DNA from: Candidatus Aerophobota bacterium
Lineage (GTDB): Bacteria > Chlamydiota > Chlamydiia > Chlamydiales > Simkaniaceae
Length of the DNA: 19,961 nt
Direction of reading: 5' to 3'
Assembly (NCBI GenBank): GCA_002401865.1
Contig: NVUK01000028.1
Coordinates: 1 to 19,961, forward strand
The first letter of the stretch is position 1; each line of letters begins with the position of its first letter. The position numbers and the translations under genes were made by a program. Below are positions 12,286 through 12,415 of this stretch, piece by piece. Below the pieces are notes generated by a model. That model searched no databases and was not told where the DNA came from. It saw nothing but the letters and a program-made list of their open reading frames with translations.

Positions 12286-12415
12286 TATGCCCAATACCTT
12301 TGTGTGGGTGGTCAGTCTCAATCGTTAGCAATGGACTGGGGATATTAACTGCATTGCTAGTTATTTTTTTTTGATTATATGATTACGCTAAAACAACAAA
12401 TAAGGAGTAACCATG
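12286..12415 (+). promoter_or_regulatory. Conserved promoter/leader cassette, copy A (hairpin, -10-like box, AAGGAG followed by ATG)
   Basis: About 80% identical to 16076-16249. Contains the stem tagcaatg(12326-12333)/cattgcta(12352-12359), gattatatgattacg, then ataaggagtaaccATG. Here the ATG opens only a 24-codon ORF. Confidence 0.55.

Follow-up and report, generated by a model that had tools for sequence, protein, structure and literature searches.

The 19,961-nucleotide (nt) stretch of contig NVUK01000028.1 from a Candidatus Aerophobota bacterium, hereafter the window, possesses two copies of a cassette that joins non-coding DNA, a ribosome-binding site (RBS) and the first codons of an open reading frame (ORF). 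The explanation we favour, with moderate confidence, is that the cassettes are the paralogous promoter and 5' gene end of two neighbouring gene units (A and B), which would share promoter control. Copies A and B lie in the same orientation 3.78 kb apart, and each is located 5' of a paralogous block consisting of a PI3/PI4-kinase-like gene and a small gene. The window is part of a 38.9-kb metagenome contig (TULL18-1_SAMN07571237 scaffold_130). NCBI assigns its proteins (PCI76471.1 to PCI76475.1 among them; locus tags of the form COB21_04390) to a metagenome-assembled genome (MAG) labelled 'Candidatus Aerophobetes bacterium', and a literature search on the source MAG found no paper.

Two copies of an upstream region and the genes behind them

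Copy A (12264-12455) is similar to copy B (16045-16290) according to MAFFT, repeat finding and blastn, which agree that the repeated segment of about 130 base pairs (bp) described in an earlier note on this DNA is real. Blastn resolves the similarity into two matches, 12264-12396 with 16045-16178 (76%) and 12346-12455 with 16182-16290 (73%), and nhmmer returns the tracts with E-values of 5e-40 (copy A) and 8e-57 (copy B). The best-conserved part is an ungapped core of 86 nt, in which 71 of 86 positions are identical (82.6%, E ~7e-19) and the 15 differences comprise 9 transitions and 6 transversions. This similarity is far above chance level. The start assigned to copy B in the earlier note, 16076, is too late by 10 nt; the copy starts at 16066 ('tatgccc'). 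The shared sequence blocks listed there are present in both copies, as are the -10-like boxes and the TAAGGAGTAACCATG translation start. Two 12-mers in the upstream DNA of the core, TATGCCCAATAC and CGTTAGCAATGG, are invariant, and the block TAAGGAGTAACCATGA is identical between the copies at 16 of 16 positions (MAFFT).

The window holds only these two copies. The extra length of copy B is explained by a tandem duplication of 53-56 bp (approximately 16126-16183 and 16182-16238), the units of which are 87.5% identical over 40 nt (blastn). In the second unit TAGACA replaces TTGCTA and the spacer is shorter.

Past the ATG the similarity runs about 43 nt further, with 27 of 43 positions identical, and stops at approximately 12455/16290. 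The cassette had been said to head two unrelated downstream genes, which does not hold, since their 5' end is common to both. We read the cassettes as including 5' gene ends because the homology continues through RBS and ATG into 14 codons before it ends, and the frame of a YhcG-type nuclease is open from about 12469 in unit A. The 24-codon ORF and the nuclease fragment behind copy A exist as first described, and the suggestion of a gene family 5' end whose bodies were replaced comes close to the truth, with about 14 homologous codons followed by the YhcG remnant. The open YhcG frame contains ..QKFLVELGEGFAFVGRQY.., the listed ORF begins at GTG 12510, and the remnant (12510-12896) covers profile positions 46-157 of 157, so that the N-terminal domain and the first 45 profile positions are missing.

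On the + strand, unit A consists of the cassette, the 24-codon stub, the YhcG remnant, an orphan ORF of 97 amino acids (aa), a 511-aa PI3/PI4-kinase-like gene and a 93-aa gene. Unit B, also on the + strand, consists of the cassette, a 113-aa orphan ORF, a slipin (Band_7) gene, a 527-aa PI3/PI4-kinase-like gene and a 94-aa gene. The blocks 13376-15296 and 17786-19746 share 63% nt identity over 2027 columns (blastn), on the same strand and in the same order. The DNA connecting cassette and block (12456-13375 in unit A, 16291-17785 in unit B) is non-homologous. We read the arrangement as a local duplication because two copies of the same orientation each lie 5' of a paralogous kinase-like and small-gene block; close copies in the same orientation with collinear homologous flanks, as in local segmental duplication, are found here, with non-homologous middle parts.

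Accordingly, a segmental duplication of the local (tandem) type, in an island-like stretch rich in repeats, would have produced the two same-strand, collinear units. Copy A would later have lost the gene body that followed it, with the YhcG remnant and the 97-aa orphan ORF now in its place and the 24-codon stub left behind, and copy B would have gained the tandem duplication of its promoter segment. The positions of all features are given in Table 1.

Table 1. Features of units A and B, with positions in the window and the basis of each assignment
Feature	Position	Strand	Basis or remark
Copy A, full similarity tract	12264..12455	+	Upstream region, promoter-like boxes, RBS, ATG and ~14 codons; blastn, nhmmer
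Copy A, 86-nt core	12286..12371	+	Best-conserved part; covariance-model search recovers two copies only
13-codon upstream ORF, copy A	12287..12328	+	MPNTFVWVVSLNR*; TAG stop is the first 3 nt of the hairpin 5' arm; without good Shine-Dalgarno
Inverted repeat, copy A	12326..12359	+	TAGCAATG (12326-12333)-N18-CATTGCTA (12352-12359); RNA stem 8 bp, -7.6 kcal/mol
Sigma-70-like promoter, copy A (predicted)	12354..12383	+	TTGCTA-N18-TATGAT; consensus scan, 9/12
RBS TAAGGAG, ATG 12413 and 24-codon stub ORF (12413-12487)	12401..12487	+	Truncated paralogue of the 113-aa gene 5' end
YhcG-type PD-(D/E)xK nuclease remnant	12469..12896	+	Pfam PF06250 YhcG_C, E 8e-41
Unit A paralogous block	13376..15296	+	511-aa PI3/PI4-kinase-like gene 13384-14919 (PF00454), 93-aa gene 14983-15264
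Copy B, full similarity tract	16045..16290	+	blastn, nhmmer
Copy B, 86-nt core	16066..16151	+	Alignment, nhmmer, covariance model
13-codon upstream ORF, copy B	16067..16108	+	MPNTFVWVISPKR*; AAGGAAG 7 nt upstream; stop in hairpin arm
Inverted repeat, copy B	16106..16139	+	TAGCAATG-N18-TATTGCTA (16132-16139); 7 Watson-Crick pairs and one G-U; -5.3 kcal/mol
Tandem duplication of promoter-like segment, copy B only	16126..16238	+	Repeat finding; blastn
Sigma-70-like promoter, copy B (predicted)	16134..16162	+	TTGCTA-N17-TATAAT; consensus scan, 10/12
RBS TAAGGAG and 113-aa orphan ORF headed by copy B	16235..16588	+	NCBI PCI76474.1, hypothetical protein COB21_04390
Unit B paralogous block	17786..19746	+	527-aa PI3/PI4-kinase-like gene 17794-19377, 94-aa gene 19439-19723

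Promoter-like boxes and conservation of the core

The predicted promoter boxes occupy the same aligned position in both copies, with RBS and ATG 20-85 nt further on. The layout of a sigma-70 promoter, i.e. hexamers 16-18 bp apart followed by an RBS and a start codon, is present by consensus only. The -35-like TTGCTA is located inside the 3' arm of an inverted repeat.

The core is conserved above the silent sites of the genes that follow it. The kinase-like paralogues share 47% protein and 62% DNA identity, and 52% identity at 103 fourfold-degenerate sites (dS, the synonymous divergence, ~0.95); the 93-aa and 94-aa genes share 69% DNA identity and the stub past its ATG 63%. A core identity of at least 71/86 has a binomial p of 7e-8 against a background of 55% and of 0.006 against 70%, and 2.4% of the 86-nt windows of the paralogous coding block reach the core identity. 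Few parts of the duplicated unit are thus as well kept as the non-coding core, and either a function or a recent conversion of the tract would explain this. Because its identity of 83% stands against the 52% at fourfold-degenerate sites of the flanking paralogues, the core is probably a constrained, shared promoter or regulatory region of the sigma-70 type.

Each copy would then provide a sigma-70-type promoter followed by a strong RBS and an ATG. The conserved DNA of about 65-90 bp that precedes the promoter, including the 12-mers and the inverted repeat, would bind the transcription machinery or a regulator, and both PI3/PI4-kinase-like operons would thereby be under the same control. The homology, the collinearity, the breakpoints, the consensus matches and the conservation of the core above silent sites are shown directly; the firing of these promoters, the position of the transcription start and the binding of proteins to the conserved upstream DNA we infer from the sequence. 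Copy A had been described as driving only the 24-codon ORF and the nuclease fragment. The terminator scan found no terminator-like site on the + strand between copy A and the 97-aa, 511-aa and 93-aa genes, so copy A may still drive these genes.

Several points weigh against shared control by duplicated promoters. A single duplication of the whole unit we infer across cassette-to-kinase DNA that is non-homologous. Promoter-like matches in this AT-rich region number 18 against 16.3 expected from shuffles, and hexamers alone prove nothing. Between the centres of the two half-sites of the inverted repeat there are 26 bp (2.5 helical turns), an unusual spacing for one dimeric regulator. The slipin gene of unit B has its own upstream region of 225 bp and its orthologues elsewhere stand alone, so the copy B cassette may drive the 113-aa gene only. 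Finally, a patch of the kinase gene (~13712-13884) is 84-86% identical, with 78% third-position identity in its block, and the high identity of the core could reflect a recent gene-conversion tract instead of constraint.

The last point leads to an explanation that we regard as doubtful, namely that the cassettes are relics without a function of their own, representing the part of the duplication last homogenised by gene conversion, with copy A decaying together with its stub ORF. What follows copy A is a dead stub of 24 codons and the remains of a nuclease gene, and pseudogene fragments abound in the region (higB/higA-like fragments, the YhcG remnant, a porin-like 5' fragment). Divergence is also patchy, as conversion typically leaves it: when the aligned kinase-like paralogues are divided into blocks of 60 codons, third-position identity varies between 0.38 and 0.78, and the most similar 86-nt windows are 86% identical. 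This patchiness shows that either conversion or uneven constraint is at work in these genes. From a single conversion tract, however, a roughly uniform identity is expected, whereas the core (83%) differs from the adjacent stub (63%) and the RBS block is identical throughout. Moreover, the intact kinase-like gene lies 970 bp downstream of copy A with no + strand terminator predicted between them, and copy A plausibly is working.

Among known systems, tandem-duplicate paralogous promoters come with the same traits: two same-strand copies a few kb apart with collinear paralogous genes downstream, and homology that spans promoter, RBS and first codons, with one copy truncated and fused to unrelated DNA. 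The present case differs from them in that the non-coding part is better kept than the coding paralogues at their fourfold-degenerate sites, and in that the DNA between cassette and kinase-like gene is unrelated between the units. Operator palindromes that overlap the -35 box resemble the cassettes in that one inverted-repeat arm coincides with TTGCTA at the proper distance from the -10 box. Unlike in such operators, the arms here are 18 bp apart (26 bp centre to centre), and the 113-aa product of the first gene is without a recognisable DNA-binding domain (Pfam; low-confidence AlphaFold2).

Two further readings of the core were rejected. A minus-strand coding remnant has a frame open in both copies, but the differences lack 3-periodicity (6/5/4). 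Sigma-54 and sigma-28 promoters fail on spacing, which fits neither (by eye, against literature spacings).

If the duplicated-promoter explanation holds, the cassettes are likely the shared control region of two paralogous operons, the kinase-like products of which are possible host-interaction proteins. The arrangement also documents the decay of one operon copy, and its practical value is small. The non-coding core, as the best-conserved part of the unit, is a reasonable region in which to seek a regulator site or a short leader, should the organism or its close relatives become tractable. The arrangement is fairly ordinary, and reveals neither a new class of mobile regulatory elements nor a demonstrable new RNA.

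The inverted repeat and a possible leader

The 8-bp stem with its 18-nt loop and the change in copy B that preserves G-U pairing, both recorded in the earlier note, exist. The hairpin does not, however, exceed what chance would give. Among shuffles of the 86-mer, 2-3% contain a perfect inverted repeat of 8 bp, 31 of these repeats (loops of 3-30 nt; 0.13 per 86 nt) are present in the window, and a conserved helix of at least 8 bp, with G-U allowed and both copies pairing, is found in 23% of column shuffles of the two-copy alignment. The sole hairpin change between the copies is a C-to-T that converts G-C into G-U in copy B. By the pairing rules, roughly half of the transitions in a stem keep pairing, and a single change of this kind thus is no evidence of structural selection.

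RNAalifold detects two hairpins common to both copies (columns 4-24 and 41-74), which folded alone reach -7.5 to -8.8 kcal/mol. The consensus fold contains zero compensatory changes, a result with little power for two sequences. An alternative 5-bp helix (columns 30-34 with 54-58) includes one compensatory pair, and such helices occur in 86% of shuffles. For the cores of copies A and B the folding z-scores, which are not significant, amount to +0.23 and -1.15 (+ strand) and to -1.17 and -2.14 (- strand). A mild signal comes solely from the arms, which have changed less than the loop (1/16 versus 7/18, Fisher p = 0.04); compared with the remaining core positions they do not differ significantly (p = 0.28). 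Rfam gives no match at the gathering threshold for the whole window and nothing credible at E up to 10 for both copies. The selection on structure proposed from the G-U pair is therefore not borne out, as the change is single and one-sided, the covariation check on the two-copy alignment yields no compensatory change in the hairpin, the + strand z-scores are as given and the hairpin lies within chance. A structured RNA likewise receives no support, as the core has no Rfam match, an ordinary folding energy and no compensatory pairs in the consensus fold of the two sequences.

The core could alternatively be a transcribed leader attenuator, with a 13-codon peptide MPNTFVWV[V/I]S[L/P][N/K]R, a terminator-like hairpin and a T-run, or a two-hairpin small RNA of about 85 nt, a reading that we consider unlikely. 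Transcription would start upstream of the core, and the position of the ribosome on the leader would decide hairpin formation and read-through. The upstream ORF is intact in both copies with conserved start and stop, and its TAG stop coincides with the start of the hairpin 5' arm; a T-rich sequence follows the hairpin in both copies, and AAGGAAG 5' of the copy B ORF resembles a Shine-Dalgarno sequence. The two common RNAalifold hairpins with their energies and the lower rate of change in the arms also fit a leader. Four of the six differences in the upstream ORF fall on third codon positions and two are synonymous, but this excess is not significant (binomial p ~0.1), and an identity of 83% would by itself lead one to expect that both copies keep a 13-codon ORF intact. 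The ORF of copy A has no Shine-Dalgarno sequence, and the conserved tract begins only about 22 nt 5' of the upstream ORF ATG, so that no conserved promoter lies ahead of it. The intrinsic-terminator scan does not call the hairpin; against the usual G+C-rich stem of at least 5 bp, loop of 3-8 nt and T-run right behind it, the hairpin has a loop of 18 nt and 3 G-C pairs in its stem, with the T-run present. The absence of Rfam matches at either setting, the + strand z-scores, the hairpin without compensatory change and the shuffles that reproduce the alternative helix with its compensatory pair speak against a leader as well.

A more specific version, to which we give slightly less credence still, makes the core a new cis-regulatory leader in which translation of MPNTFVWV..R controls read-through into two kinase-like operons. 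Its signals, namely the intact upstream ORF, the enrichment of changes at third codon positions and the better-kept hairpin arms, are each within chance for two sequences. If true, the leader would control operons with eukaryote-like PI3/PI4-kinase domains in an uncultured marine bacterium. With the attenuators trpL, pheL and ermCL the core shares a short upstream ORF that ends inside a hairpin, a T-run after it and structural genes downstream. It differs from them in having no run of regulatory codons (a single Trp) and no convincing alternative antiterminator; its stem, weak and rich in A+U, closes a loop of 18 nt, and no conserved promoter is present upstream. A good promoter-like site, furthermore, is located downstream of the hairpin.

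Further copies and neighbouring sequences

Searches with nhmmer (E up to 100) found no third copy in 28 kb of the source contig, made up of the window and 8 kb more, and related loci, and the covariance model of the two-hairpin fold (E up to 10) recovered the known copies only from 88 kb including related loci. The related loci are those of the kinase-like homologues (L006-L009) and of the closest slipin orthologues (L017-L019); the cassette is absent from these loci of other samples. The pattern GCCCAATACN{22,28}GTTAGCAATGG, which matches both copies, gives 3 chance matches only in 185,579 GTDB species genomes (the source genome not among them), in Nitrotoga, Cyclobacteriaceae and Sneathiella, each inside unrelated sequence. 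It has 5 matches, all chance, in JGI metagenomes (the source contig not among them) and 0 in viral contigs. Plasmids and phages contain no match (blastn, distant setting).

These results bear on the view of the cassette as a portable regulatory module, expressed in the earlier note: no further copy was found in the part of the contig, the related loci and the public collections searched, and the two copies known have the same orientation, each upstream of a collinear paralogous block. A portable or dispersed element, i.e. a mobile promoter, a repeat like miniature inverted-repeat transposable elements (MITE) or repetitive extragenic palindromes (REP), an attC-like site or a recombinase target that brings expression signals, is very improbable. 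Several observations would suit such an element: units A and B have unrelated middle parts; remains of toxin-antitoxin and nuclease genes, which cassette arrays typically carry, are found close by; and homologues of the kinase-like gene elsewhere border on the end of a tRNA gene or on genes for resolvase, TraD and SSB. Against it stand the missing third copy, the chance nature of the pattern matches, and the ends of the tracts (12264/12455 and 16045/16290), which show neither terminal inverted repeats nor target-site duplications. The window contains no integrase or recombinase gene, and the attC core sites RYYYAAC/GTTRRRY are absent from both copies (by inspection; GTTAGCA fails RRR).

The cassette resembles REP sequences and bacterial interspersed mosaic elements (BIME), MITE and attC repeats in being a short piece of non-coding DNA that is repeated, in carrying an imperfect inverted repeat and in lying where gene remnants are plentiful. 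Unlike these, it occurs in two copies only, without terminal repeats, target duplications, attC sites or a recombinase, and it includes an RBS and an ORF start. An integron attC site was rejected as a candidate: core sites are missing, the element is located 5' of genes and contains an RBS, and no integrase is found in the window. A fragment of the att type derived from tRNA or tmRNA was rejected as well, as the tRNA/tmRNA scan gave none.

The 113-aa protein behind copy B has no Pfam match and no homologue besides itself, and its AlphaFold2 model is of low confidence (pLDDT, the predicted local distance difference test, 47) and uninformative on a DNA-binding fold. Its ORF holds a 42-nt tandem repeat (16474-16556, 93% identical) that encodes KRRLAQDVRDFSNK / RRRLAEDVRNFYNK. 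Thousands of proteins from a wide range of bacteria share 65-83% identity with the slipin/Band_7 gene (16813-17793), and the closest orthologues of this gene (76-81% identical) are stand-alone genes without cassette. It has the look of a housekeeping resident that became enclosed by the cassette with the 113-aa gene on one side and, on the other, by the kinase-like gene, the start codon of which directly abuts the slipin stop codon.

Both kinase-like proteins possess a PF00454 catalytic domain behind Gly/Ala/Ser-rich N-termini, and the gene of each is followed by the 93-aa or 94-aa orphan gene. Only three other homologues were found among 5.8 billion proteins. At one homologue locus (L006) the gene is located directly after a tRNA gene 3' end, and at another (L007) it adjoins resolvase, TraD and SSB genes. 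These neighbourhoods suggest that the kinase-like gene and the small gene form an effector module that is mobile and possibly directed at a host.

At the contig end (19788-19961, compare 19329-19518) the 94-aa gene, together with the DNA 5' of it, begins for a third time (86-99% identical); the assembly probably breaks within a tandem array there. A 43-nt repeat (13214-13255/15421-15463, 86%) connects the 3' end of the 97-aa ORF with the spacer after the 93-aa gene and may be a sign of another rearranged fragment between units A and B. Paralogous porin-like proteins of 328 aa and 355 aa, with signal-like N-termini and ending in ...F, are encoded at 2073-3059 and 4898-5965 (64% nt identity). 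A lone 115-nt copy of the 5' part of the 328-aa gene (4373-4487, 81%) represents a second duplicated gene 5' end. Given this porin-like fragment, the third copy of the 94-aa gene and the 43-nt repeat, local duplication is frequent here.

Just 5' of copy B a degraded toxin-antitoxin remnant with frame breaks is found (15702-16033), which contains a fragment resembling higB/RelE and the last 44 aa of an antidote protein of the HI1420 type with a helix-turn-helix (PF21716, E 1.5e-10). The window opens with the C-terminal end (12-1466) of a 2889-aa RHS/YD-repeat protein (DUF6531, TEN_YD-shell; locus L015, 725-9394), followed by a 175-aa gene at the position of an immunity gene (1467-1994). The spacer between copy A and the divergent aromatic amino acid lyase gene on the - strand (12162-12276) is AT-rich and weakly self-complementary (65% over 115 nt), and holds the best - strand promoter-like match of the region, TTGAAA-N17-TATAAT (11/12).

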